A DNA stretch of 64,000 bases from the NCBI GenBank assembly GCA_016861265.1, contig BOLA01000001.1, positions 267,569 to 331,568 on the forward strand. Reading direction: 5' to 3'. The stretch comes from Patescibacteria group bacterium. GTDB taxonomy: Bacteria > Patescibacteriota > Dojkabacteria > J137. The position numbers and the translations under genes were made by a program. Within the stretch, counting starts at the first letter, position 1, and each line of letters opens with the position of its first letter. Positions 31,601-43,529 of this stretch are shown piece by piece. Under the pieces are notes generated by a model, which was not told the origin of the DNA, ran no database searches, and saw only the letters and a list, made by a program, of their open reading frames with translations.

Positions 31601-31631
31601 TAAGAATCAAAAAAGGAGCATCTCTGCTCCT
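31601..31631 (-). terminator. rho-independent terminator ending the Nudix / wHTH / NTase / PurA-like operon
   Basis: On the minus strand AAGGAGCA-gaga-TGCTCCTT followed by TTTTTTGATT. Confidence 0.65.
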
Positions 31632-31651
31632 TTAAAATATTTAGATTATAT

Positions 31652-32110
31652 TTATTTACTTGCGTTGTATTTTTTTAATGCAACTTCAAGAATTTGATCG
31701 TGGTCAAAAGCCAGTGGCTTTGGTAATTTATTTAAATCAAACCACTCTGCTTCTGTGGTGTCGTTATCGGCACCATCTTGTGGTTTTAAATCAGATAATT
31801 CATCGGTAACTATTAAATATGCAATAGAAACAACTCTTTTTCTTGGGTCTCTATTAACTTTTCCAAAAGCTTGAATTTGTTCAATGTGCTTTGCAGTTTT
31901 AAAGCCAGTTTCTTCTTCGAGTTCTCTTAATGCTGCATCTTCTAGTTCTTCATGGTCATGTACAAATCCACCGGGAATAGCCCACTGACCTTCGAATGGT
32001 GCATACTTTCTTTTAATTAAAAGCAAATATTTCGCATCCTTTTGTTCAGATATTACAACAATATCTACTGCAACTTTAAGTTCTTGTAAGTCAATAACGA
32101 ATTTTTTCAT
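31652..32110 (-). CDS. NUDIX hydrolase
   Basis: Nudix box GGFVHDHEELEDAALRELEEETG. Confidence 0.85.
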   Translation of the reverse strand: MKKFVIDLQELKVAVDIVVISEQKDAKYLLLIKRKYAPFEGQWAIPGGFVHDHEELEDAALRELEEETGFKTAKHIEQIQAFGKVNRDPRKRVVSIAYLIVTDELSDLKPQDGADNDTTEAEWFDLNKLPKPLAFDHDQILEVALKKYNASK

Positions 32111-32114
32111 ATTA

Positions 32115-33218
32115 TTAATTAAAAGTTAATTTATAACCTTTGTTATATAAAGTTACTATATCTATATTATAACCAGATTGTTTTAGTTTTTTTCTTAATC
32201 TAGACATTCTTTGCTCAATAGCCCATTCAGAATATTTTTCATCAACTTGATCACCCCAAATAATCTTAGCCATCTCTTCCTTAGAAACTTCGGGATTTGC
32301 GTGCATATATTCAATCATTGTTTTTTCACTTTTTGTGAATAAATCAAAATTGATATTAAGTTTATTATCTTGAGTAACAGTTTCTTGTTTAATTTTGTAA
32401 TTAATTAGTTTTTCTTTAATAGCTGGCACTGAAATATCACCATTAACTATAAAGCCTACTTTTTCGTACATTTCTACAATTTCTTGTTCATGTCTGTTCA
32501 ATTTCATTTTATTTATAACTTTTTTGAAGGTACTAATTTCTTCTATAGTCATGTTGTCCAGTAAATACCCTATAAAGTTATCTAGATGTTGGCTTCCTAG
32601 TAAAATGTCTCTATACATTCTTTTAAAAGTACCAAAATGAGTATTTGTTTTTGCAAATATCTCTTCTAGTGTTTTAGTTTCGATTGGCTCAGGTTTTTTT
32701 AGTAATTGTCTGATAATCGAATCTTTATCCCATGTACCTATTTTAAAGTAGATAATTGCATCGAATATACTCGATGACACAGGGAATGCTTTTGTAAATT
32801 TATCTTCAATATTTGGAGTTTCAATTAAGTATATAAACTTAACTCTATTTTTATATTTTTTAATTAATCCATCGATAGATGCTACTAATTTATAGGCGTC
32901 ACCATAAATTTCGATGTCATCAATTAATACTACAATTTCGTACCCTTCTTTTAGGGATTCTAATAAACCAGTACCAAATTTATCCTTTTTTCTAAGTTCA
33001 ATATCTATACAATTTTCAAGTGAGTCGATATCAGTATCCTTTAAAGACTGAGTAGATATGTAAATAAACGCATATTGTGCGTCGTAATTTTGAGGATTTT
33101 GATCTAGGTTGTCTAAAATATCATATAAATTACTAATTCCATCATCTGGAAAGCTTAATATAGTAGGACTAACCCCCATATTTAAGTAATTTACAATCTT
33201 TTTTATATCTTGCTCCAT
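32115..33218 (-). CDS. protein with C-terminal OmpR/CadC-type winged-helix DNA-binding domain and uncharacterised N-terminal domain
   Basis: C-terminus IIWGDQVDEKYSEWAIEQRMSRLRKKLKQSGYNIDIVTLYNKGYKL matches trans_reg_C; no receiver domain or P-loop. Confidence 0.5.
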   Translation of the reverse strand: MEQDIKKIVNYLNMGVSPTILSFPDDGISNLYDILDNLDQNPQNYDAQYAFIYISTQSLKDTDIDSLENCIDIELRKKDKFGTGLLESLKEGYEIVVLIDDIEIYGDAYKLVASIDGLIKKYKNRVKFIYLIETPNIEDKFTKAFPVSSSIFDAIIYFKIGTWDKDSIIRQLLKKPEPIETKTLEEIFAKTNTHFGTFKRMYRDILLGSQHLDNFIGYLLDNMTIEEISTFKKVINKMKLNRHEQEIVEMYEKVGFIVNGDISVPAIKEKLINYKIKQETVTQDNKLNINFDLFTKSEKTMIEYMHANPEVSKEEMAKIIWGDQVDEKYSEWAIEQRMSRLRKKLKQSGYNIDIVTLYNKGYKLTFN

Positions 33219-33273: not shown

Positions 33274-35187
33274 TCAATTTGTGTTATCCGTTCCTGGTAA
33301 CCCAATATTAACTGCTGGAAGAAATATTTTTTCTAAAAACAGCAGTGTTGCAATACCCCTATAACCTTCATCCCAGAAAGTTCCTGAGTAATCAATTAGA
33401 TTCGAATGCTCAGTCTGGACCTGCTTAGCTCCAGGGTAAAATCGCTTATAACCTTTATGCATTAGTCTACATTGTAATATATCCATTTCTAATTGCCTTA
33501 AAAATTGAGTTCGAATTTGTGGTTCTTCTACTCCAAATCTATTTAAATTAAAGTATTTCGATATTATATTTGAATAAATATCTCTTAACTCCGGGCAACC
33601 ACCTATCCATAAACTATTCATTAATATATGAACTTCTAAAGGTCCAAGAATATTTTCTTCTCTTGGAACATCTCTGAAACCATAAATGCCATTATGTTTA
33701 TATAGCCAGAATTCAAGAATTTTATCAATGCCGTTTATCTCAGGGATAGTTTGCCTTAACAAATCCATTATCTCAGAACGTTTTTCCCATGGAGTTTCTG
33801 GCTTAAAGAAAATTGCCATATCTATATCTGAGTTTGTACCTGCATATCCTTTTAGCCTTGAACCAAAACCAATAACAAATGGATAAACATATTTTGAGAG
33901 CTCATAGCTTTGCTCTATTCTTTTTGCAACAATTGCTAATAATTTAAAGTCCTTATTTATTAATTGTTCACTACTGACTGCTTGGGCTTGGGATAAATCT
34001 GTTAATTGGAGTCCCAAATTTGTAAGATACTCTTTAGGAACTACATTTAATCTGACTAGATAATTTAATCCCGTAATAATTGCATCTCTAACTTCACCTT
34101 GAGCATTTTGAAAACTATTCTCAATGATTACTCTATAGGTTTGAAATAATCCTTTAGCATCTTCTAAATTTAAATATGATATTCTTTCTGCTGCGGTAAA
34201 AATTGATTTAATTGCTACAATTAAAAAAACATTATCAAAACCCTCCATTAGTGCAATCGATTGTAGGTCTAGATTTGTACTTAATAACTGACTAGCAATT
34301 TCATTAACTGCACTATTAATTATTTGCTCTCTTGAAACTTGCTTCTCCCATTTTGCTCTCGCTCTAGAAATCGTTCTAGCGTAATCAGAATTTAAATCAT
34401 ATTTATTTTCTAAGCTTATTAAGTCGAATTCTAAATGCTTAATTATTTCTTCTAAAGTTTTTGGAACTTCTAACTGAGGCAGTTGTGAAGTAATGTTTTC
34501 ACCTAACAGACTTCTAAAAAGCATGCCTATTATTGGTTTACGGCTAGACATTTCAGTTATTAAATCAATATAAACATCGTCTAGTATTCCGCTATAAGAA
34601 GCAGTCAGCATTCCTTCGAGTATTGATTTTATTAATTCTTCTTCTTGCGATATTTCTAATAGTTCAATTAGTAATTCCGGTTTAATTATTGTAAGTTTGA
34701 GAAATATTGGAATTAAATGAGCTATTTTTCTTACTCGCTCAGGAATTCCCAATCCAGGTTCTAGAACATCACCATCTACAAAGTTTGCTCTTATGTCACT
34801 TTCGTGAAGTAATCTTATAAATCCAATTTCGATTAGTTCTTTTAATCTAGTCTGCAAATTAAATAACTCATGTTCGAAAAGAGAATATGGAAAATATAGA
34901 AGTATTCTAGAGTTATTTGTATCGAGTTCTAAAAAATCAGCTAGTTGAGTGTATAATGATAGTAATTCCTCTGATGTTACTTCTTGTTGTAAAGATTTTT
35001 TATGTAGAATACTTCTCAAATTACTTGAAAAACTCTCTCTTTGCAAAGCCTGGTCAACTAAATCTGGATTTATCGTAATATCAGTTGGCAATAAATCATT
35101 AGTTAAATAATTTTGAGTTGTTAAAGGTTCAATTAAATGTACAGAACCTACACCTTCTATATTTTTAATTAGATCTGATTGATTCAT
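33274..35187 (-). CDS. large nucleotidyltransferase (Pol-beta superfamily) with about 430-aa N-terminal helical region
   Basis: GFGSRLKGYAGTNSDIDMAIFF equals the GS-x9-D-x-D NTase signature; stop/start overlaps the upstream PurA-like gene. Confidence 0.6.
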   Translation of the reverse strand: MNQSDLIKNIEGVGSVHLIEPLTTQNYLTNDLLPTDITINPDLVDQALQRESFSSNLRSILHKKSLQQEVTSEELLSLYTQLADFLELDTNNSRILLYFPYSLFEHELFNLQTRLKELIEIGFIRLLHESDIRANFVDGDVLEPGLGIPERVRKIAHLIPIFLKLTIIKPELLIELLEISQEEELIKSILEGMLTASYSGILDDVYIDLITEMSSRKPIIGMLFRSLLGENITSQLPQLEVPKTLEEIIKHLEFDLISLENKYDLNSDYARTISRARAKWEKQVSREQIINSAVNEIASQLLSTNLDLQSIALMEGFDNVFLIVAIKSIFTAAERISYLNLEDAKGLFQTYRVIIENSFQNAQGEVRDAIITGLNYLVRLNVVPKEYLTNLGLQLTDLSQAQAVSSEQLINKDFKLLAIVAKRIEQSYELSKYVYPFVIGFGSRLKGYAGTNSDIDMAIFFKPETPWEKRSEIMDLLRQTIPEINGIDKILEFWLYKHNGIYGFRDVPREENILGPLEVHILMNSLWIGGCPELRDIYSNIISKYFNLNRFGVEEPQIRTQFLRQLEMDILQCRLMHKGYKRFYPGAKQVQTEHSNLIDYSGTFWDEGYRGIATLLFLEKIFLPAVNIGLPGTDNTN

Positions 35188-36734
35188 TAAGCTTCTATTT
35201 CTTTATCTGAATTATCGGTTTTCCAACCGCCTGTTCTTGAAAGTAAAGCTTCATGGCCCTTTCGAATCCTTCTATCAGAAGCTTTTGGGCCGTGAGAAGT
35301 AGCAACAACATTTACTTTTAAGTTCTCCTCTACATATTCTAAAAATACTTGCTCCAAACTTTTATCTTCGGTAGCAACCAAAGTTCTTAATACTGGTTTA
35401 CATTGTTTAAGTAATTCAGTTAACCTAACTTGATGGTTATAGTGTTTTTCATCTTGAGTATTAGCAACAACTTTTATTGCTTTTATTACGCCATCTTCAA
35501 TAACAAAATAATCTTCAAGATCATCTGCAATCCCGTCGAATATATAAGCTTCACAAACCTGCCACTCACTGAATTGATTTAAAACATCTAAATAACTTAT
35601 TATTAATCCGTCGTATGTATTTGCTCCACCGCTAATCGCTAAGGAATACTGCATTGCAACCAAATCGTATTGACCATTCTTAAAATCACCTAGCCAATCA
35701 TTACCTGTATTATTATGAGTTTCGTGTATGGCACTAGACATTTCAGGACTAAAGCTAACAAGAGGTCCTGCACCATGCCTAGTCATGTAGCATCTTGAAA
35801 CTCCTAATCTAATAACCTTTCCTGAGTAATTTTTTGTTTCCAGAGTTTCCAGTAAATCTGAAGACGTTGGATCAATTTGTGTAGTGTGCGGTATAAATCC
35901 ATACCAAGGATGTAATAAAGAACCGTGTGAAGGTTCGGTTACAATTGCTCCTTCTTGATTTAGAATTCCAGTAAATTGTTCGTCATTAGAAATTTGAACA
36001 AGTGCTGCTAAGCATTCAAAAGATTCAACAGTTGCTACTACTAAACTTGTACTATTTAAAATTTTCATTTCTGAATAAACTTCGTCAGGCAATTCTTCAA
36101 TTCCCATATCACTTATAATTTGGATTGCTTGCTGTAGTTTATGCTGTCTAATTGCCTCTACTTTTCGCATTAAATAATCTGTTCCAAGGCTAAATTCAGC
36201 AGCAGTTATTCCTAAATCAGGAGAAGTCCTTGAATCTTTTATAGCATCACCAACTCCTTTACCTACTGTTCCTTTTTTTTGATCTCTTAATCTTTCTTTG
36301 AATCTACTAAATGCTCCATGAAAGGGAGTTACGGTTAAACAGTTTCCGTCAATTGAGATTAAATCCAATGGATTTGCAATACCTTTTGCTTCAAGTTCTA
36401 AAGCTTCCGTAAATAAATCCACAGGGTTAATAACCATGTGAGTTAAATGTGTTTTTGCACCTTCAAAAGTCCCACAACCAAAATGAGAAAACATTTGTTC
36501 GGTTCCATCTTCGTTAATAATGTGATGACCAGCCTGAGAACCACCTGTTCTTAAAACAGTGTGGGCATTTAAAAGTTGAGTTAACCATTGTACCGTTGCA
36601 CCTTTAGTTTCCTCACCAATACCTAGACCATTAATTACTACAATCTCCGAATTATTTTTTACTCCATCCATATTATTAAATTTAAAGTTATTCCTTTTCG
36701 TCCTTTTGGACTCATCAGTTTTGATACACATCAA
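35187..36734 (-). CDS. divergent adenylosuccinate synthetase (PurA/PurZ)-family protein; true start probably 36671
   Basis: PurA motifs present but altered: GEETKGA (for GDEGKGK), GGSQAGHH (GG.NAGH), GTVGKGVGDA (GTT..GIGP.Y); the Met at 36671 gives the canonical short N-terminus. Confidence 0.65.
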   Translation of the reverse strand: MMCIKTDESKRTKRNNFKFNNMDGVKNNSEIVVINGLGIGEETKGATVQWLTQLLNAHTVLRTGGSQAGHHIINEDGTEQMFSHFGCGTFEGAKTHLTHMVINPVDLFTEALELEAKGIANPLDLISIDGNCLTVTPFHGAFSRFKERLRDQKKGTVGKGVGDAIKDSRTSPDLGITAAEFSLGTDYLMRKVEAIRQHKLQQAIQIISDMGIEELPDEVYSEMKILNSTSLVVATVESFECLAALVQISNDEQFTGILNQEGAIVTEPSHGSLLHPWYGFIPHTTQIDPTSSDLLETLETKNYSGKVIRLGVSRCYMTRHGAGPLVSFSPEMSSAIHETHNNTGNDWLGDFKNGQYDLVAMQYSLAISGGANTYDGLIISYLDVLNQFSEWQVCEAYIFDGIADDLEDYFVIEDGVIKAIKVVANTQDEKHYNHQVRLTELLKQCKPVLRTLVATEDKSLEQVFLEYVEENLKVNVVATSHGPKASDRRIRKGHEALLSRTGGWKTDNSDKEIEA

Positions 36735-36744
36735 AATAAGGATC

Positions 36745-36775
36745 GAGCAGGTGAGATTTTCATCATCACCTGCTC
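36745..36775 (-). terminator. rho-independent terminator after the vWA/kinase island
   Basis: 10-bp perfect stem GAGCAGGTGA..TCACCTGCTC, then on the minus strand GATCCTTATTTTGA. Confidence 0.6.
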
Positions 36776-36793
36776 AAACATGTGAATAGCTAC

Positions 36794-37957
36794 TTAGAAC
36801 TTCGACCAGTCGAAGGGCTTACGTGGCGGGCGCGGGGTCGAAACATCTTCTTCCGCCTCCCCACTTTCGAAGACAGCCTGACCTTCCGCCTTGGGGTGAC
36901 CAATCGGCCAGGCATGGCGATAATTCTCGAACTCATCCCCGGGCTTCGGCATGACACCGAAGTTGGGCAAACGAGTCTGAGCGCCGGCATCGATCTTGGC
37001 GACTTCCAGCGCGTACCAGATTGCGTTGGCATCGCGCTGCGAAATCGGCTGGTTCGTACCGCGCGTTGTCTCGATCAGGAAATCAACCAAACGCTGCTGC
37101 GTCACGCCGACGTTCTCGGTGATGTAGATGATCGCAACCTGAGTTTCAGCGATCAGGTCAGCATTGGGGACAAGGACAACGCGTCCTTTACCCAAAGTGC
37201 TTTCCCAGAAGCTGGTCACGTGGTTGCGTGTTGCTGCTTGACCACCACGCGCCACCTGAAGGTAGAACGTGTGCCACGCCTTATTCAGGCTGCGGGCGAG
37301 ATCACTGGTCTTGGTCGTGGATTGCAGACCAATCCCCAAGTGCAGCATTGCTGCTTCCTTGGTGATGCTGCCGCGACCTTCTTGGTCACCGACAATCATC
37401 ATGTAGCCTTTGAGGCCGTACATGGTATAGATGTCGGTCTGGACAGCGCGATCAACGTAGGCGAGCGCCATGTCGTAGTCTTCAACCGGATCGCCGCCGC
37501 TTTCCGCTGCGAGCAGAAGACGAAGCTGTTCAGCAATCCGATTGTCGGACTCGAACTGAGTCTGTTGATAGACCGGTTTGCTGTCGTCAACGTCCTGAAC
37601 CACTGCGGATGAGAGCTGCATGTTGTAGCGCTCCCGGGCGAAACCCAGCATGTCGTAGATCGTGCCAAGCTCAAAGAAAGCCTTGCCCACGTTCTCGCCC
37701 ATGCTGGCAGTACCGTCGAATACCGTGAGCAACGGCATCGCCGGGCCATTCTTGAGGATGGTCTTGTCGCCTTCACGCACCAAAGCGTTACGCGACTTAC
37801 GGGTCTTGCCATTGATGTCCACCAACGGATCGACCTTACCGGTTGCGCGGAAAACACGATCACCGACCTCGTGTACCGTCTCACGACGGGCTTTCATGGT
37901 GGCGACCGTTTCTTCGAACTTGGCACTGCTGAAGGTTGCGACGTCTGTTGTACGCAT
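36794..37957 (-). CDS. vWA-like (MIDAS D-x-T-x-S) domain protein (GC-rich island F)
   Basis: LLTVFDGTASMGE; about 58% GC. Confidence 0.45.
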   Translation of the reverse strand: MRTTDVATFSSAKFEETVATMKARRETVHEVGDRVFRATGKVDPLVDINGKTRKSRNALVREGDKTILKNGPAMPLLTVFDGTASMGENVGKAFFELGTIYDMLGFARERYNMQLSSAVVQDVDDSKPVYQQTQFESDNRIAEQLRLLLAAESGGDPVEDYDMALAYVDRAVQTDIYTMYGLKGYMMIVGDQEGRGSITKEAAMLHLGIGLQSTTKTSDLARSLNKAWHTFYLQVARGGQAATRNHVTSFWESTLGKGRVVLVPNADLIAETQVAIIYITENVGVTQQRLVDFLIETTRGTNQPISQRDANAIWYALEVAKIDAGAQTRLPNFGVMPKPGDEFENYRHAWPIGHPKAEGQAVFESGEAEEDVSTPRPPRKPFDWSKF

Positions 37958-38020
37958 GATTGTTGTCTCTGCTTTCTTGGATTTGTTTTAGATTCGGATT
38001 GAGTTGGGCGAATGCCTGAG

Positions 38021-38938
38021 TTACAGGCTGTAGGTCACGAACTGGTGAAAATCACGCTTAAAACGATCAGTACCTTCGATGGGCTTTTTGGGCCAGAAGA
38101 TATCTGCCTGTGCGTAGATGATGCTGTGCTCAGCACCAGCGCCGTCGGTGCTTCCGTCCATAATGCGACGGAGCGAGTCAATGTACTGCGTGTGGTGTTC
38201 AGCCGAAAGGAGCGCTGCATCGTGAGGGGGATTGTTGTCCCCGCCGCCCACAGCATTCCACAGCATTTTCGCTGCGGCCGAAACTTCCGCCATACATTCT
38301 GATTTGCTGGCGTCCTCGTTCGCTTCTGAGAAGTCGAGGACAAAGACACCGTGAACATCCTTTTCGATCAGGACGTTCGTGGCGTCGACCATGCCAACAG
38401 TGAAGCCCAGCGAGTGGACAAAGTCCAAAAGCTTGAGCAACTTGCCCAGCACCCACGTGCCGGTCTTGAGATCGATGCGCTGACCGTCAAGCACTCGCGC
38501 CAGCGGGAAAAGCTGTTTGTATGTGTTGATGCTCGGGTGGTAACCCAAGACCATCACAAAACGCCCATCTTCACCCACGAACGAATCGAGTAATGTCGGG
38601 AAAAGCGCTCCGTAGTTCAGCGGATTCTCGCCCCGGCCGACCGCTTCCGCATCCAAGTCCGTCGCGATCTGCTGCAAAGTGCGCAGAATACGCGATTCGG
38701 TTTCGAGGATGTGGTTGAGGTCGACGGTTGCAGCGATCTTCATCAGCCCCATTTGTCCCGAAGGGAGTTTGGCAACATAGAGCTTCCAGCTTTCGGTGGT
38801 GACCAATGCGGTGCCGCCGATGCTGAAAATTTCGTAAGTGCCATTCGCGCCGTCGATTTCGGTCATGCTCGTAAGAGCCGACCCCGAAGTTGAGTCATCA
38901 CCAACTGGTGCAGTCCCGAGAAATTCCTTGTCGTCCAT
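38021..38938 (-). CDS. protein-kinase-like fold protein with atypical catalytic loop (GC-rich island F)
   Basis: GLMKIAAT (VAIK-like), VGMVDATNVLI (catalytic-loop-like, D-x2-N not D-x4-N), VLDFSEA (DFG-like). Confidence 0.4.
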   Translation of the reverse strand: MDDKEFLGTAPVGDDSTSGSALTSMTEIDGANGTYEIFSIGGTALVTTESWKLYVAKLPSGQMGLMKIAATVDLNHILETESRILRTLQQIATDLDAEAVGRGENPLNYGALFPTLLDSFVGEDGRFVMVLGYHPSINTYKQLFPLARVLDGQRIDLKTGTWVLGKLLKLLDFVHSLGFTVGMVDATNVLIEKDVHGVFVLDFSEANEDASKSECMAEVSAAAKMLWNAVGGGDNNPPHDAALLSAEHHTQYIDSLRRIMDGSTDGAGAEHSIIYAQADIFWPKKPIEGTDRFKRDFHQFVTYSL

Positions 38939-39239
38939 TGTGTACCTTCCTTATATTGTCGAATGTGTATGATTACCAGGATATTCCCTAGTAACAGCCA
39001 CACCCTAAAGACATAATCTACAGAGTGTGACTGTTACGGTAACCTTACTTTAGCTATTCACTTGTTAATGTACTTTCCGAGATTTAAAATCATCGGACTC
39101 TCAAAAGAGATTGATTTGTACCTTTAGCAAACTTCTTTCGAAGATTTATTAATTAAGTACATTGAGATTGTATTAGCGAATGGATATATAAGCCTGATAG
39201 CAAAAGTCAGGCAGCAGTAGATATATGCCATATATAATT

Positions 39240-39511: not shown

Positions 39512-40786
39512 ATGAATCATCAAAACACAAGCACAATCTGGGACGTAATAGTAATTGGCGCAGGTCCAGCCGGCCTTATGGCTGCAGGTCGAGCTGCTGA
39601 GCGTGGTAAAAGCGTACTACTATTAGAAAAGAATCCATACATAGGTAAAAAACTTTTAATTACAGGTGGTGGCGGATGCAACGTTACAAACAATAAACCA
39701 GAAGTACAACAATTAGTTAATAGCTACAAAGGTTCCCCTAAAGCTCTCTACTCTGTTTTTAGTCAATTCGATGTTACAAATACTTTAGAGTTTTTCCATA
39801 ACAAAGGAATGCCTACTAAATTAGAAGCAGAAGGCAGAATATTCCCTGAAAGTAACAAGGCTCAATCTGTTTGGAATGTTTTAAATGAATACATTACAAC
39901 AAACAAAGTTACATTAAAAACAAATGCTGTAGTTACAGGAATAACTTTAAACGAAGATAAAACTTTTAAAATTAAACTAGTTAACGATGCTGTTGTTGGC
40001 AAAGCATGCATTGTTGCAACTGGTGGAACTAGTCACCCAGAAACAGGTTCCACTGGTGATGGTTTTAAATGGTTAAAACAATTAGGGCATACAATTAATC
40101 CTAATTCATTTTCTTTGGTACCAATTGCATTAAAAGAAACCTGGGTTAAAGATGTTAGCGGTATAGCATTAGAAGATGCAGTTATTCGTGTTTATTTAGA
40201 TGGTAAAAGACAAGCACATAAACAAGGTAAAATCTTGTTTACTCATTTTGGATTAAGTGGACCAGCTGTTTTAAATTTGAGCAGTCAAATTGGTGAACTA
40301 CTACAGTATGGCAATGTAAGTTTAGAAATTGATTTACTACCGCAATACGATAATGGAATGTTAAAAACAGAACTATTCAATGTACTTACTACAGATATAA
40401 ATAAGAAGATTAAAAATACATTGAATAATTTAATTGCTAGTGGATTAGTTTTAACTGTATTAAAGTTAGCAAACGTGGATACAGACAAAGCCAACAATAG
40501 TATTACAAAAGAAGAACGTTTACGTTTAGCACAAATATTAAAAGCAATTCCAGCTAATGTTAAACATTTACTTGGTGCCGATAAAGCAATTGTAAGTTCC
40601 GGTGGAGTTGATATTAACGAAGTTGATTTTAAAACAATGCAATCTAGATTAATACCAAACCTATATATTATTGGGGATTTATTAGATATTGATAGACCAA
40701 GTGGTGGTTATAGTTTGCAGTTGTGCTGGAGTATGGGGATGGTGAGTGGGGGCCTATTTAAAAGTTGCAAGCTGAGGTATTTTTAG
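39512..40786 (+). CDS. HI0933/BaiN-family FAD-dependent flavoprotein
   Basis: VIVIGAGPAGLMAAGRAAERGKSVLLLEKN, GGGGCNVTN, typical about 420-aa length. Confidence 0.85.
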   Translation: MNHQNTSTIWDVIVIGAGPAGLMAAGRAAERGKSVLLLEKNPYIGKKLLITGGGGCNVTNNKPEVQQLVNSYKGSPKALYSVFSQFDVTNTLEFFHNKGMPTKLEAEGRIFPESNKAQSVWNVLNEYITTNKVTLKTNAVVTGITLNEDKTFKIKLVNDAVVGKACIVATGGTSHPETGSTGDGFKWLKQLGHTINPNSFSLVPIALKETWVKDVSGIALEDAVIRVYLDGKRQAHKQGKILFTHFGLSGPAVLNLSSQIGELLQYGNVSLEIDLLPQYDNGMLKTELFNVLTTDINKKIKNTLNNLIASGLVLTVLKLANVDTDKANNSITKEERLRLAQILKAIPANVKHLLGADKAIVSSGGVDINEVDFKTMQSRLIPNLYIIGDLLDIDRPSGGYSLQLCWSMGMVSGGLFKSCKLRYF

Positions 40787-42157
40787 AAAAATAATACCTC
40801 TGGCAATCATAATATTGTCTTTTATAACATAACATTCCACATAATGATCTCCAATGTATGCAATTTGTTCTTTACGTATTTTGGTGCCATCATCTTCCCA
40901 AATTTGACCCCTTAACTTCTTAGCATATTTACCTGTATTTCTAATTTTCCAGAAAATTTGAACTGGATCATATGTACTTATGACTTCATTATCTTCTATA
41001 TAATATTCTAAGTTTGCTGATCTTCTAAAAAACGTGACTTCAGATAAAAGAGTAGGGTTTGGATTCCCATTTTGAGTCACTATTGCATTGAGTTTTATTT
41101 TTAGTAAATTAGGACTTACACTAAATCCTTTTTCTTCTATAAACTGCTCAACATCCGATGGAAAGTTCTTCACAGCCCAAGAGATGAAGGAATGGAAAGC
41201 CATCGAAATCGGATAACTTTTAATTGATTCATCGTCTTCAATTACCTTAAATTGATCACCAAATATTTGATTCCATTTCTTGGAACTTTCAACTACATCC
41301 TGCAAATCTAGGGCCTCTTTTGCGATATTAAGTGATTCATCTACTATTCTCATAAACTTCTTAAATTCGTCTAAAGACATTGAGATTTTTAAATATTCGC
41401 CCTCTAAACCTGGATCTTTAAGTTCTGGGATTGATGACAATGTCTCGAAGTTACTATATTTATTAGATATAGATTCTAGAACACTTGTAAATAATTCAGC
41501 ATAAGTATCTTTAGCTTGGAAATTATCCCCTACTAAAAACTCAATCCAGAATCCTTTCGGTTGCGGTTTTTTTACTTTTGAATTTAGTTTCCACCAATAC
41601 TTAAAAATCTTCACCAATGGGACGAACATTTCTTTACTTTTTTCCAATGAATTTAAGTTAGAAGTGTATTCAGTATGTGCCTTTGGATGACTATAGACCC
41701 ATTTACTTAGTTCCTTATCTGGAATTAATAGCTTACTGTCTCCATCAGTTTCAACTACTGTAGGTAGGACATCTAGAGTCATCTCAACATCTGGGTGTTC
41801 GGGCAATGCTTGCTTTACTTTTACAGATTTACGGGAATACTCAAGATTATCTGCATCCTCATAATGTTCATTCAAGCTTTTCTTCAACTTTGCTAACACT
41901 TTAGCAGGTGTATTTTCTTCTTTGGATGGATCAAAATCAGTAAGAATCGCGATATCAATATCTTTAATATCCCCTACTGCGGTATGTCTCTTATAAGAAC
42001 CATATAGAAATGATCCAATAACATTTTCTGCAATAGTAGCATCATTCTCAAGATGTTCTCGAATAGTTGAATGTGCCTCTTTTGCAAAATTTTTTTGTTC
42101 TGGATCTGGTTCAATATTTGTTAAAAAATCATCAAAGCAAGTATTAAGAGTTGCCAT
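40754..42157 (-). CDS. CD-NTase-like (SMODS) cyclic oligonucleotide synthase with about 130-aa C-terminal extension
   Basis: GSFLYGSYKRHTAVGDIKDIDIAIL (GS..R.TA...D.D), third Asp in MTLDVLPTV, KGFWIEFLV helix. Confidence 0.55.
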   Translation of the reverse strand: MATLNTCFDDFLTNIEPDPEQKNFAKEAHSTIREHLENDATIAENVIGSFLYGSYKRHTAVGDIKDIDIAILTDFDPSKEENTPAKVLAKLKKSLNEHYEDADNLEYSRKSVKVKQALPEHPDVEMTLDVLPTVVETDGDSKLLIPDKELSKWVYSHPKAHTEYTSNLNSLEKSKEMFVPLVKIFKYWWKLNSKVKKPQPKGFWIEFLVGDNFQAKDTYAELFTSVLESISNKYSNFETLSSIPELKDPGLEGEYLKISMSLDEFKKFMRIVDESLNIAKEALDLQDVVESSKKWNQIFGDQFKVIEDDESIKSYPISMAFHSFISWAVKNFPSDVEQFIEEKGFSVSPNLLKIKLNAIVTQNGNPNPTLLSEVTFFRRSANLEYYIEDNEVISTYDPVQIFWKIRNTGKYAKKLRGQIWEDDGTKIRKEQIAYIGDHYVECYVIKDNIMIARGIIFLKIPQLATFK

Positions 42158-42158
42158 A

Positions 42159-43529
42159 TTAAAAAGTACTATTTGTAATTATTGTTGCACGCTGATATAT
42201 TTCTCTATCCGCACCCAAAAAATATACATGGAGCTTTGCATTAAGAGAATCTAGTTTGTGTCCCGCCATTAGCGAGATAGGTTTAGGAATAGCCAAAAAT
42301 AAATGTATATCTTTGATTCCCCAACTTTGAATCTCCATAATAGAATTAGACAATTCTTTTGCTACAATTGAAGCATGCGCGGAGTTTGAAACTCTTCCAT
42401 CCACAATGTATTTATGTACTATATATTTTATTGTAGGAAAGTTTCTGTCATTTATATTTTTTAAAACAATATCTTTTAAGTCTTTTCGACCAACAGCATC
42501 AAAGATTAGTACAGCTTCTGTAGAACTATTATCTATTATTAAAGGTTCTTGTGATTTTATTCTTGATTCTACAGCTGGAGTATCCTCTTCAACACTACTC
42601 CACAATTGTTTTTTGTAGATTACCTTGAATTGGATTCTATTTTTTCTAAAAGCTAGGCCTAGTTGAAACGCAAGGGAAATCTCAATATCTGTATAGATTA
42701 TTATATTTTCGTACATGGATGTAGACTTTATAATTTCTACCAAAGCTTTTATAGATTCGATAATTTTCCTATTCCTATCTTCTAACTGTTCTTTGCTTAC
42801 GTAAAAATCCTCGAAGTACACTGTTAAATCAACTACCTGATCAAAAGTTGAATTTTTCTGTGTGGTTACTCCTAAGTAAAGTGTTCTCGGTTTTACTGAA
42901 GTAACTTTTTTAAATATATTTTGGGTTTGATTAAGTTCTAGTAGTATTTCCTTTATTTTTTCTTTTTCATTTAGAATTTCTTTAGAAGTTTTCAAGATTG
43001 TCTTCCTAGTAAGCACATTCAAGTCAGAAATTTTAAGATCAAAAAATTTGTCAGTAGGAAGATTCTTTGAATAATATTTATACACTAGATCGGGATAATT
43101 ATCTAAAGAACTCATTAAATCACTCCAAAAAACGGGCGTTACCATACTCTGTCCCTGAGCTAATCTATTCTTACTTAAAGCCAAGCACATTGAAGTTATT
43201 TTCGAATCACTCGCAGCACTAGTTACATAATAAAAATTGTTTAACTTAATACCTGCCTTCTTAAGCTTTTCTAAACTTTCTGTTATATCAGCTTCCATTA
43301 CCGATTGAATCTTATTAGTTGGAACATCTAAATGATTTTTGCATTGAATGCCCTCAATTTCGTTAGTTCCAAAATTAAACCCCAAAATATCTAATCCATA
43401 TTGAGCTTGTCCTTTTCTACCAAATCTTTGTAGATTGGGATTTATGAACTTCCGTGAAAAGATATCGCAGACTAAATCTTCGAAAAAGCTATCATCTTTA
43501 AGTTTTGGTAAATCAAAGATTCCACTCAT
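42159..43529 (-). CDS. Cap4-like effector: N-terminal Mrr-like PD-(D/E)xK nuclease plus large C-terminal (SAVED-like) domain
   Basis: GLDILGFNFGTNEIEGIQCKNH resembles the Mrr_cat motif; about 330-aa C-terminal domain; directly upstream of the CD-NTase with 1-nt spacing. Confidence 0.45.
   Translation of the reverse strand: MSGIFDLPKLKDDSFFEDLVCDIFSRKFINPNLQRFGRKGQAQYGLDILGFNFGTNEIEGIQCKNHLDVPTNKIQSVMEADITESLEKLKKAGIKLNNFYYVTSAASDSKITSMCLALSKNRLAQGQSMVTPVFWSDLMSSLDNYPDLVYKYYSKNLPTDKFFDLKISDLNVLTRKTILKTSKEILNEKEKIKEILLELNQTQNIFKKVTSVKPRTLYLGVTTQKNSTFDQVVDLTVYFEDFYVSKEQLEDRNRKIIESIKALVEIIKSTSMYENIIIYTDIEISLAFQLGLAFRKNRIQFKVIYKKQLWSSVEEDTPAVESRIKSQEPLIIDNSSTEAVLIFDAVGRKDLKDIVLKNINDRNFPTIKYIVHKYIVDGRVSNSAHASIVAKELSNSIMEIQSWGIKDIHLFLAIPKPISLMAGHKLDSLNAKLHVYFLGADREIYQRATIITNSTF

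Follow-up and report, generated by a model that had tools for sequence, protein, structure and literature searches.

To our knowledge, the adenylosuccinate-synthetase fold is known for two reactions, those of PurA and PurZ, both of which use aspartate. Position 13 of these enzymes is Asp in 99% of PurA and Ser in 100% of phage PurZ (PMC12884076), and the phylogenetic study of PurZ that reports these figures leaves viral homologues that are neither PurA nor PurZ undiscussed (PMC12884076). The kind of protein considered here is already known because the family name 'PurA-like' exists in phage annotation; in the literature searched, which extended to a comparative-genomics survey of jumbo phages, neither the clade nor the gene cassette to which the protein belongs was found described in functional terms. 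Here we analyze a PurA-like gene in a 64,000-nucleotide stretch of DNA (hereafter, the window; all coordinates refer to it unless a locus is named) from a Patescibacteria group bacterium (GTDB lineage Dojkabacteria, J137; assembly GCA_016861265.1, contig BOLA01000001.1, positions 267,569 to 331,568 of the forward strand), a member of the candidate phyla radiation (CPR). The coding sequence (CDS; 35187..36671, minus strand, coordinates including the stop codon), characterized by an open reading frame (ORF) scan, Pfam, AlphaFold2 (AF2) and Foldseek, encodes a 494-aa protein and lies in a cassette with genes for a kinase-like protein, a protein with a metal ion-dependent adhesion site (MIDAS)-type motif and a Pol-beta-type nucleotidyltransferase (NTase). 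The reading that we favor, and to which we give an even chance, is that the product is a folded, probably active GTP-dependent ligase that would use an amine other than aspartate and that represents a Patescibacteria sub-branch of a third clade of the adenylosuccinate-synthetase superfamily.

A preliminary description of this DNA, made from the letters alone, had read the ORF 35187..36734 (minus strand) as a putative adenylosuccinate-synthetase paralog. This ORF is indeed present in the ORF list, and its product matches the Pfam family PF00709 (Adenylsucc_synt) with E=5e-40 over residues 33-429. The AF2 model built from 117 homologues reached a pLDDT of 94.6 and a pTM of 0.92, and in a Foldseek comparison with the PDB all of the top 31 matches were bacterial, plant and mammalian PurA (E about 2e-28, TM about 0.72/0.83, about 21% identity), with archaeal PurA and PurZ/PurZ0 ranked much lower (E 1e-15 to 1e-9, 12-14% identity). 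A divergent protein of the adenylosuccinate-synthetase family is thus an apt description. The cut-offs of the PurA equivalog models were missed, with 106.3 bits against 402 for NCBIfam NF002223, 89.8 against 395.6 for TIGR00184 and 78 bits against 445 for a third NCBIfam PurA equivalog model. The best profile match is phrog_1211 (E=1.7e-51, 176.5 bits; protein residues 8-468, profile positions 2-412 of 414), the family that includes the protein annotated as 'PurA-like adenylosuccinate synthetase' in about 200 Bixzunavirus mycobacteriophages.

The same profile is shared with phage enzymes annotated as '2-aminooxy adenylosuccinate synthetase', and this, together with a weak match to the NCBIfam PurZ model (E=1e-4), is what speaks for the reading, suggested by the analogy drawn in the preliminary description, that the protein would be of the PurZ type and convert dGMP into a precursor of 2-aminoadenine. 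However, the PurZ model (NF038379) yields 21.6 bits against a cut-off of 300, position 13 is Glu, neither the Asp of PurA nor the Ser of PurZ, and Foldseek favors bacterial PurA (2e-28) over PurZ (E about 1e-15, 13% identity). Furthermore, the aspartate loop, which PurZ also needs, is missing, and no genes of the datZ, mazZ or dpoZ type were found among the annotated neighbors. On residue 13, model score, fold ranking and context, we therefore rejected identity with PurZ, and a function of this type appears to us hardly credible. The model scores below the cut-offs and the Glu at position 13 together place the protein outside both the PurA equivalogs and PurZ.

An exhaustive phmmer search of 1.84 billion representative sequences recovered, at E<=1e-30, at least 1336 clusters of 50% identity, a figure that is a lower bound on the size of the clade. 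In a neighbor-joining tree, a distance method applied here with E. coli PurA as the single outgroup, a long branch separates the whole set from that outgroup, and two CPR groups, A and B, appear as sister clades next to mixed viral and other bacterial sequences. Within Patescibacteria, homologues were found in Shapiro-, Woese-, Davies- and Falkowbacteria, Paceibacterota, Saccharibacteria and Peribacteria. Two members of the subgroup that includes the window protein (P0045 and P0067, 700-701 aa) carry an additional C-terminal domain of about 220 aa with the look of a small kinase or phosphotransferase; this domain did not match the profile of the kinase-like protein of the cassette.

The active site was read from a HMMER alignment to E. 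coli PurA (1ade) and from a MAFFT alignment of 121 sequences, in both cases against residue roles that we take from E. coli PurA crystallography: D13 and H41 are presumed to be catalytic, N38, T129, T239 and R143' to clamp the 5'-phosphate of IMP, T300, T301, R303 and R305 to hold aspartate or hadacidin, and D333 to read guanine. On the minus strand of the window, the P-loop GDEGKGK of PurA becomes GEETKGA (36597..36617; D13E, G15T and K18A, with K16 kept), GGHNAGH becomes GGSQAGHH (36522..36545; N38Q and H37S, with His41 kept) and GTTGRGIGPA becomes GTVGKGVGDA (36243..36272; T129V, R131K and P135D). These three motifs had been listed in the preliminary description, and both alignments agree with the readings of the P-loop and of GTVGKGVGDA at the IMP/GTP loop; the second motif had been called kept, which holds for its letters and for His41 and fails for Asn38 and His37, replaced by Gln and Ser. 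Comparison with PurA thus shows that the motifs were correctly assigned and that the canonical residues are truly changed, but the list lacked Q224H, V273H, the loss of R143 and the replacement of the aspartate loop, which are the largest changes.

The first of these additional changes lies in EPSHGSLL (35913..35936; FEGAQGTLL in PurA), where Q224H is specific to the CPR clades, and the second in TRHGAGP (35763..35783; TRVGAGP in PurA), where V273H is clade-wide. Where PurA has the aspartate-binding loop GATTGRRRRTGW, the window protein has GNDWLGDFKNGQ (35670..35705), such that GATTGRRRR turns into GNDWLGDFK and T300, T301, R303 and R305 are represented by a gap, W, G and F, respectively. R143 is lost, with a non-basic residue in its place (acidic in most of the clade). 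Among the ligands of the IMP 5'-phosphate, N38, T129 and R143' have no counterpart and T239 is the sole one kept. The catalytic His41 and the P-loop Lys16 of PurA correspond to H49 and K23. Guanine specificity is retained: TKLD of PurA reads SYLD (35586..35597; K331Y), with the guanine-specifying Asp333 kept as D362, a residue invariant in the 117-sequence alignment, and SHGPKA provides the S414-x-G-P motif. The signature residues of the clade in the window protein are Q46, D142, H299, W326, G328, F330 and D362.

We then compared 35 functional positions of PurA over 176 relatives, comprising 75 Microgenomates-type sequences (group A), 19 of the Paceibacterota/Saccharibacteria type (group B), 23 other bacterial sequences (group C) and 59 viral ones. 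Retained throughout are G12 (98-100%), D or E at position 13 (98-100%), K16 (96-100%), H41 (91-100%), T239 (T/S, 98-100%), R272 (97-100%) and D333 (100%), and T/S128, G274 and S414-x-G416-P417 are kept nearly everywhere. Changed throughout the clade are N38 (to Q, 96-100%), T129 (to V, I or C), P135 (to E/D), R143 (to E, D or a gap) and V273 (to H, 91-100%), and in the aspartate loop T300 is deleted, T301 gives way to W, Y or F, R303 to G (57-100%) and R305 to F, V or L, so that the loop takes the form xxW-G-x-F/V-R. Given these residue roles in E. coli PurA, the clade would keep GTP binding and phosphotransfer while the aspartate site and most of the 5'-phosphate clamp have been dismantled. 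The earlier suggestion of an altered substrate is thus well taken, as the changes among the aspartate and IMP 5'-phosphate ligands argue for changed substrates. Its emphasis on the P-loop fares less well: the change is real but limited to one Microgenomates subclade, whereas the clade-defining changes lie in the aspartate and IMP 5'-phosphate pockets. D13E and G15T are confined to group A, with Glu13 in 97% of its members, and Asp13 is retained in 89-100% of the sister CPR group and of the phage and other bacterial members; the P-loop change is presumably a late, lineage-specific addition. Q224H is confined to the two CPR groups, A and B, and phage and other bacterial members keep Gln224. The Arg at position 306 of the aspartate loop is kept in the clade but is Lys in the window protein.

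The P-loop changes of the window's subclade, Asp13 to Glu and Gly15 to Thr, would be at home in a non-catalytic GTP-binding subunit, that is, a pseudo-enzyme or switch that regulates a complex of the NTase, the MIDAS-like protein and the pseudokinase, and this idea gains from the fusion of the protein to the NTase in some genomes and from a partner kinase that also lacks its catalytic Asp. However, His41, Lys16, Arg272, Thr239 and the clade-specific His273 and Glu135 are conserved at 90-100%, which points to a maintained active site, and the sister CPR group and the phage members retain Asp13. We judge a mere switch very unlikely.

Retention of the fold and of K16, H41, an acidic residue 13 and D333 could also be explained if the gene is the organism's housekeeping adenylosuccinate synthetase (IMP, Asp and GTP), highly diverged and serving AMP salvage in a reduced CPR genome. 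Proteins of CPR bacteria are often very divergent, homologues of the window protein are named 'adenylosuccinate synthase' in databases, and no other purA was seen in the window. Against this stand the loss, across the clade, of three of the four Arg and both Thr of the aspartate loop, with R143 acidic or replaced by a gap, and scores that amount to about one quarter of the PurA equivalog cut-offs. Furthermore, most of the clade consists of phage genes whose partners are not metabolic, a CPR genome (L006) has two different copies, each with a MIDAS-like partner, and no purB is present among the scanned ORFs of the window, where canonical purA and other purine-biosynthesis genes were likewise not found. 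The strongest clue that the gene does not belong to housekeeping purine metabolism is its genomic context, with kinase-like, MIDAS-like and NTase partners, and we consider the housekeeping explanation unlikely.

Within the window, the cassette runs on the minus strand. It begins with a 305-aa kinase-like protein (38021..38938), which matches a CK2-like profile and phrog_3043 'kinase'. Pfam Pkinase matches 8 of 15 members of its family, and the CK2 catalytic-loop profile matches at E of about 4e-7; the beta3 Lys, the alphaC Glu, the catalytic-loop Asn and the DFG-like Asp are kept, and the catalytic Asp of the HRD motif is absent. The second gene (36794..37957) encodes a 387-aa protein with a DGTASM motif and a match to phrog_2971, from a family in which a MIDAS-type motif, DxTGSM, is accompanied by further acidic motifs. 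Downstream of the PurA-like gene follows a 637-aa protein (33274..35187) that combines a conserved N-terminal domain with a C-terminal Pol-beta-type NTase domain. The Pol-beta NTase core was found by Pfam in 14 of 14 members of this family; in the window protein it comprises a GS-x9-D-x-D motif in residues 437-480 (Pfam Polbeta E=6e-8), and a match to the NCBIfam MntA model (E=2.5e-8) is below the cut-off. Its AF2 model has a pLDDT of 90.6, and a Foldseek search of the PDB found no structural relative of the protein as a whole at E<=0.001. The start of this gene overlaps the stop of the PurA-like gene (TAATG), suggesting that the two are translationally coupled in the window.

The kinase-like and MIDAS-like genes (36780-38940) differ in composition from the rest, with 55-57% GC and a GC content at third codon positions (GC3) of 0.67-0.68 in a genome of about 33% GC, compared with a GC3 of 0.19 in the adjoining PurA-like gene. 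This anomaly recurs in a different Microgenomates genome (GC3 0.75-0.79), the copies being 44-51% identical at the protein level (L005 6600-8700, L007 7360-8484), and is absent in L006 and L008. A simple foreign GC-rich insertion was considered and rejected, because members of both families stand upstream of the PurA-like gene at every CPR locus and have a high GC content at just some of these loci; the anomaly could stem from recurrent replacement by copies from GC-rich donors or from selection on codon usage.

Searches of PurA-like loci with tblastn and hidden Markov models showed how firmly the partners are associated. In all Patescibacteria loci examined, kinase-like and MIDAS-like homologues precede the PurA-like gene, and an NTase homologue lies beside it in 13 of the 13 loci that extend far enough. 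Six independent proteins (P0121, P0122, P0127, P0280, P0282 and P0286) are full-length PurA-like::NTase fusions, and the two of these viewed in their contigs have the same two upstream genes ahead of them in the same order. The MIDAS-like gene adjoins the PurA-like gene in 63 of 66 viral loci from IMG/VR, mostly on contigs of 100-500 kb, and a kinase-like gene is present in about 50 of the 66; the pair of MIDAS-like and PurA-like genes also occurs in Clostridium, Nocardia, Flavivirga and a phage-like contig. In mycobacteriophage Gizmo, gp267 'kinase', gp268, gp269 and gp270 'PurA-like' follow the order of the cassette. Among the viral kinase-like proteins, 34 of 46 have an N-terminal HPD motif of the J-domain, which the CPR versions lack.

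The two copies in the CPR genome L006 belong to separate cassettes, of which one is of the CPR type and the other of the phage/other-bacterial type; a different MIDAS-like partner accompanies each copy. At L006 2496-5391, the MIDAS-like protein has 515 aa, with an extra C-terminal domain (phrog_1735-like), and the second PurA-like protein has 448 aa and keeps GDECKG and Gln224. In loci of the Paceibacterota/Saccharibacteria type, an additional conserved gene of about 400 aa lies between the PurA-like and NTase genes (L009 11494-12720, L013 5115-6365, L014-L016, L019 and L020); Pfam recognized no family in its product, and the window contains no homologous gene.

The termini of the MIDAS-like proteins bear on the identity of the amine. 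As many as 59 of 62 start with MG, in the consensus MGG-S-S-W/Y-S-x-x-x-Y, and the spacing between this start and the DxTGSM motif is constant (for example, L009 8591-9817, L021 8976-9899, L026 5674-6729 and viral loci L027-L092); their extreme C-termini are conserved as well, in the form ..G-x-x-[DEV]-R-L in 27 of 62, nearly all viral, ..W-L in CPR group B and ..D-W-S/T-K/N-F in the group of the window. These regularities would fit an enzyme that is a protein-nucleotide ligase in which a protein amine, such as the N-terminal glycine of the MIDAS partner, takes the place of aspartate to yield an adduct linked through the purine C6 nitrogen and destined for the NTase or the pseudokinase. The strict adjacency of the genes across phyla and phages fits this scheme, as does the change of the carboxylate-binding arginines of the aspartate pocket to Trp, Gly, Phe or Val, which would suit a groove that is hydrophobic or binds a peptide. 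However, the exceptions without an N-terminal glycine are precisely the partner in the window and its closest relatives, the Microgenomates subgroup of the window (MRTT, MART, MARK and MVEK), and such a ligase seems to us quite unlikely.

In a broader form of the idea, the PurA-like protein would be the catalytic core of an unrecognised multi-component system, made up of pseudokinase, MIDAS protein and ligase with the Pol-beta NTase added in CPR, which hundreds of large phages would have in common with Patescibacteria and which would constitute a third functional branch of the superfamily. In this system, GTP would drive the attachment of a non-aspartate amine to a purine-type nucleotide; candidates for the amine are ammonia, a different metabolite and an amino group of a protein, for instance that same glycine. 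We regard this as a tentative proposal, on the unlikely side. The presence of NUDIX, NAMPT and NMNAT neighbors in part of the loci suggests a link to the restoring or signalling of nucleotide or NAD pools in phage-host conflict.

In the reading that we favor, an active GTP-dependent ligase with a non-aspartate amine, the enzyme would use GTP to phosphorylate the oxygen of a lactam-type carbonyl on a purine-like substrate, and an amine other than L-aspartate would then displace the phosphate; binding of the acceptor as a simple 5'-monophosphate is improbable. The MIDAS protein, the pseudokinase and the NTase might receive the product or the enzyme itself, or might serve to control or scaffold it. 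Such an enzyme would perform neither the housekeeping conversion of IMP to adenylosuccinate nor the PurZ reaction.

Several points weigh against this proposal. The proposed substrates derive from alignment to E. coli PurA and from the contacts of PurA residues with IMP, GTP and hadacidin, and no biochemical data for any member of the clade were found in the literature. D13E and G15T in group A could cut or abolish catalysis, and the Arg kept at position 306 in the clade leaves some carboxylate binding possible. The 'vWA-like' (von Willebrand factor A) label for the 387-aa protein is one that we infer from the DxTGSM motif and a Pfam match to VWA_4 at E=0.08, as profile searches found no relatives of the protein in the PDB. 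Finally, a terminator-like hairpin followed by a T-run (36743..36777, minus strand, RNA fold) separates the PurA-like gene from the two upstream genes; the four genes therefore do not form one simple operon here.

This hairpin has a dG of -25.1 kcal/mol and a z-score of -4.43, and none of 200 shuffled sequences folded as well. A scan for consensus promoters found none that is convincing between the hairpin and Met 36671. The end of the hairpin lies 9 nt before the first codon of the long ORF at 36734, which the preliminary description had given as an ATG 10 nt away; the hairpin is indeed close by, but the codon is TTG, and an ATG occurs only at 36731. The in-frame extension from these codons (36672..36734, minus strand) would add 21 residues that are absent from P0001 and from the homologues, and it is probably not translated. 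The choice of Met 36671 as the start of the PurA-like CDS, already preferred in that description, is supported, because the database protein P0001, present on 5-6 contigs from independent samples, one of which is 1.11 Mb in length, is exactly the 494-aa product (100% identical) and because the alignment of homologues begins only at residue 5-10 or so.

Downstream of the cassette and on the same strand, the window encodes a 367-aa protein with a C-terminal winged helix (Pfam Trans_reg_C, OmpR/PhoB-type) and no receiver domain (32115..33218), followed by a NUDIX hydrolase (31652..32110, Pfam), the last gene before a terminator-like site at 31612-31633. The winged-helix gene is not conserved in other loci, and its membership in the module is uncertain; the NUDIX gene, two genes downstream of the cassette, is a recurrent but not constant neighbor. 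A promoter-like site (33277-33249) and the terminator-like site (31633-31612) flank the two genes, which may be co-transcribed with the cassette. Genes for NAD salvage (NUDIX/NrtR, NAMPT-like and NMNAT-like) are minority neighbors, found in 8-12 of 82 loci. In some settings (L024 1372-11021, L025 3052-11712 and viral L027, L030, L031, L033, L034, L049 and L061), the cassette lies among genes for NAD salvage or reconstitution that include NUDIX-NrtR, PRPP-synthetase-like, NAMPT-like, NMNAT-like, ADP-ribosylglycohydrolase, Tpt1 and NADAR. Such neighborhoods may reflect a functional link or a mere clustering of auxiliary genes.

Two kilobases from the cassette, a pair of genes resembling a cyclic oligonucleotide-based antiphage signaling system (CBASS) was detected with Pfam (40754-43529, minus strand), consisting of a SMODS/AGS_C cyclase (467 aa) and a SAVED-domain effector (456 aa). 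A known anti-phage defence system was also considered for the cassette itself and set aside: PADLOC gave no match for the PurA-like, MIDAS-like and kinase-like proteins and only marginal ones for the NTase domain. In the window no prophage hallmarks, tRNA or Rfam family were found, and its remaining genes are typical CPR accessory genes. Elsewhere, next to a PurA-like::NTase fusion (L093 10470-13005), an inosine-uridine nucleoside hydrolase and a HAD hydrolase are encoded on the other strand, perhaps by coincidence.

What appears to be new is the site signature and the cassette, together with the Glu13/Thr15 P-loop and a CPR sub-branch in which the NTase is coupled or fused. Collectively, these observations point to a large third clade of the superfamily in which the GTP and phosphotransfer machinery has been kept and the aspartate pocket lost, and whose genes keep a fixed place next to those for a MIDAS-type protein and a pseudokinase. 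This cassette ranges over large phages, about 200 sequenced mycobacteriophages and Patescibacteria, where the NTase is added and sometimes fused. If the chemistry differs from that of PurA, the clade would harbor a new reaction that modifies or conjugates nucleotides, one that could matter in conflicts between phages and their hosts or for the way in which ultra-small symbiotic bacteria manage their nucleotides. The widespread automatic label 'adenylosuccinate synthase', which inflates the apparent capacity of CPR bacteria for purine salvage, would then also be corrected. Experiments would be tractable in mycobacteriophages such as Bxz1 and Gizmo.

Comparison with described systems helps to place the cassette. 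Reportedly, the TerY-P triad, said to have been defined by Anantharaman, Iyer and Aravind in 2012, comprises a vWA protein, a Ser/Thr kinase and a PP2C phosphatase. By description only, the cassette resembles it in that a MIDAS/vWA-type gene stands beside a gene of the protein-kinase fold in a compact conserved unit that also occurs in phages; it differs in having no PP2C, with a PurA-like ligase as the third component and a kinase without the catalytic Asp. With MntA, the minimal Pol-beta NTase of type VII toxin-antitoxin systems, the 637-aa partner shares the GS-x9-D-x-D core, whereas the NTase partners of this clade are 570-660 aa long, have a large conserved N-terminal domain and helical regions with no PDB match, lack a HEPN toxin partner and are fused or coupled to a PurA-like enzyme.

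As for the ligase itself, PurA (EC 6.3.4.4; E. coli 1ade/1cg0) shares with the window protein the fold, Lys16, an acidic residue 13, His41, Thr239, Arg272, Asp333 and the S/A-x-G-P motif, whereas the window protein, at about 21% identity, has D13E, G15T, N38Q, T129V, Q224H and V273H, has lost R143 and the original aspartate loop, and is encoded with kinase-like, MIDAS-like and NTase genes instead of genes of purine metabolism. PurZ/PurZ0 of the Z-genome phages (7odx, 6fm1 and 7vf6) provides the precedent of a substrate-shifted branch of the superfamily in phages with an altered residue 13; PurZ, however, has Ser13, uses aspartate, is an archaeal-type protein of about 340 aa and is linked to datZ, mazZ and dpoZ, whereas the window protein has Glu13, no aspartate pocket and the size of PurA with insertions. 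The PurA-like proteins of Bixzunavirus (cluster C1) and of large phages have the signature Q38, E135, H273, W301, G303 and F305, the neighbors phrog_3043 'kinase' and phrog_2971 in the same order, and about 30% identity to the window protein over 93% of its length. The phage and other bacterial members keep Asp13, Gly15 and Gln224 and have no NTase partner, whereas the CPR branch is set apart by His224, by a MIDAS partner that is extended at the C-terminus and by the NTase.

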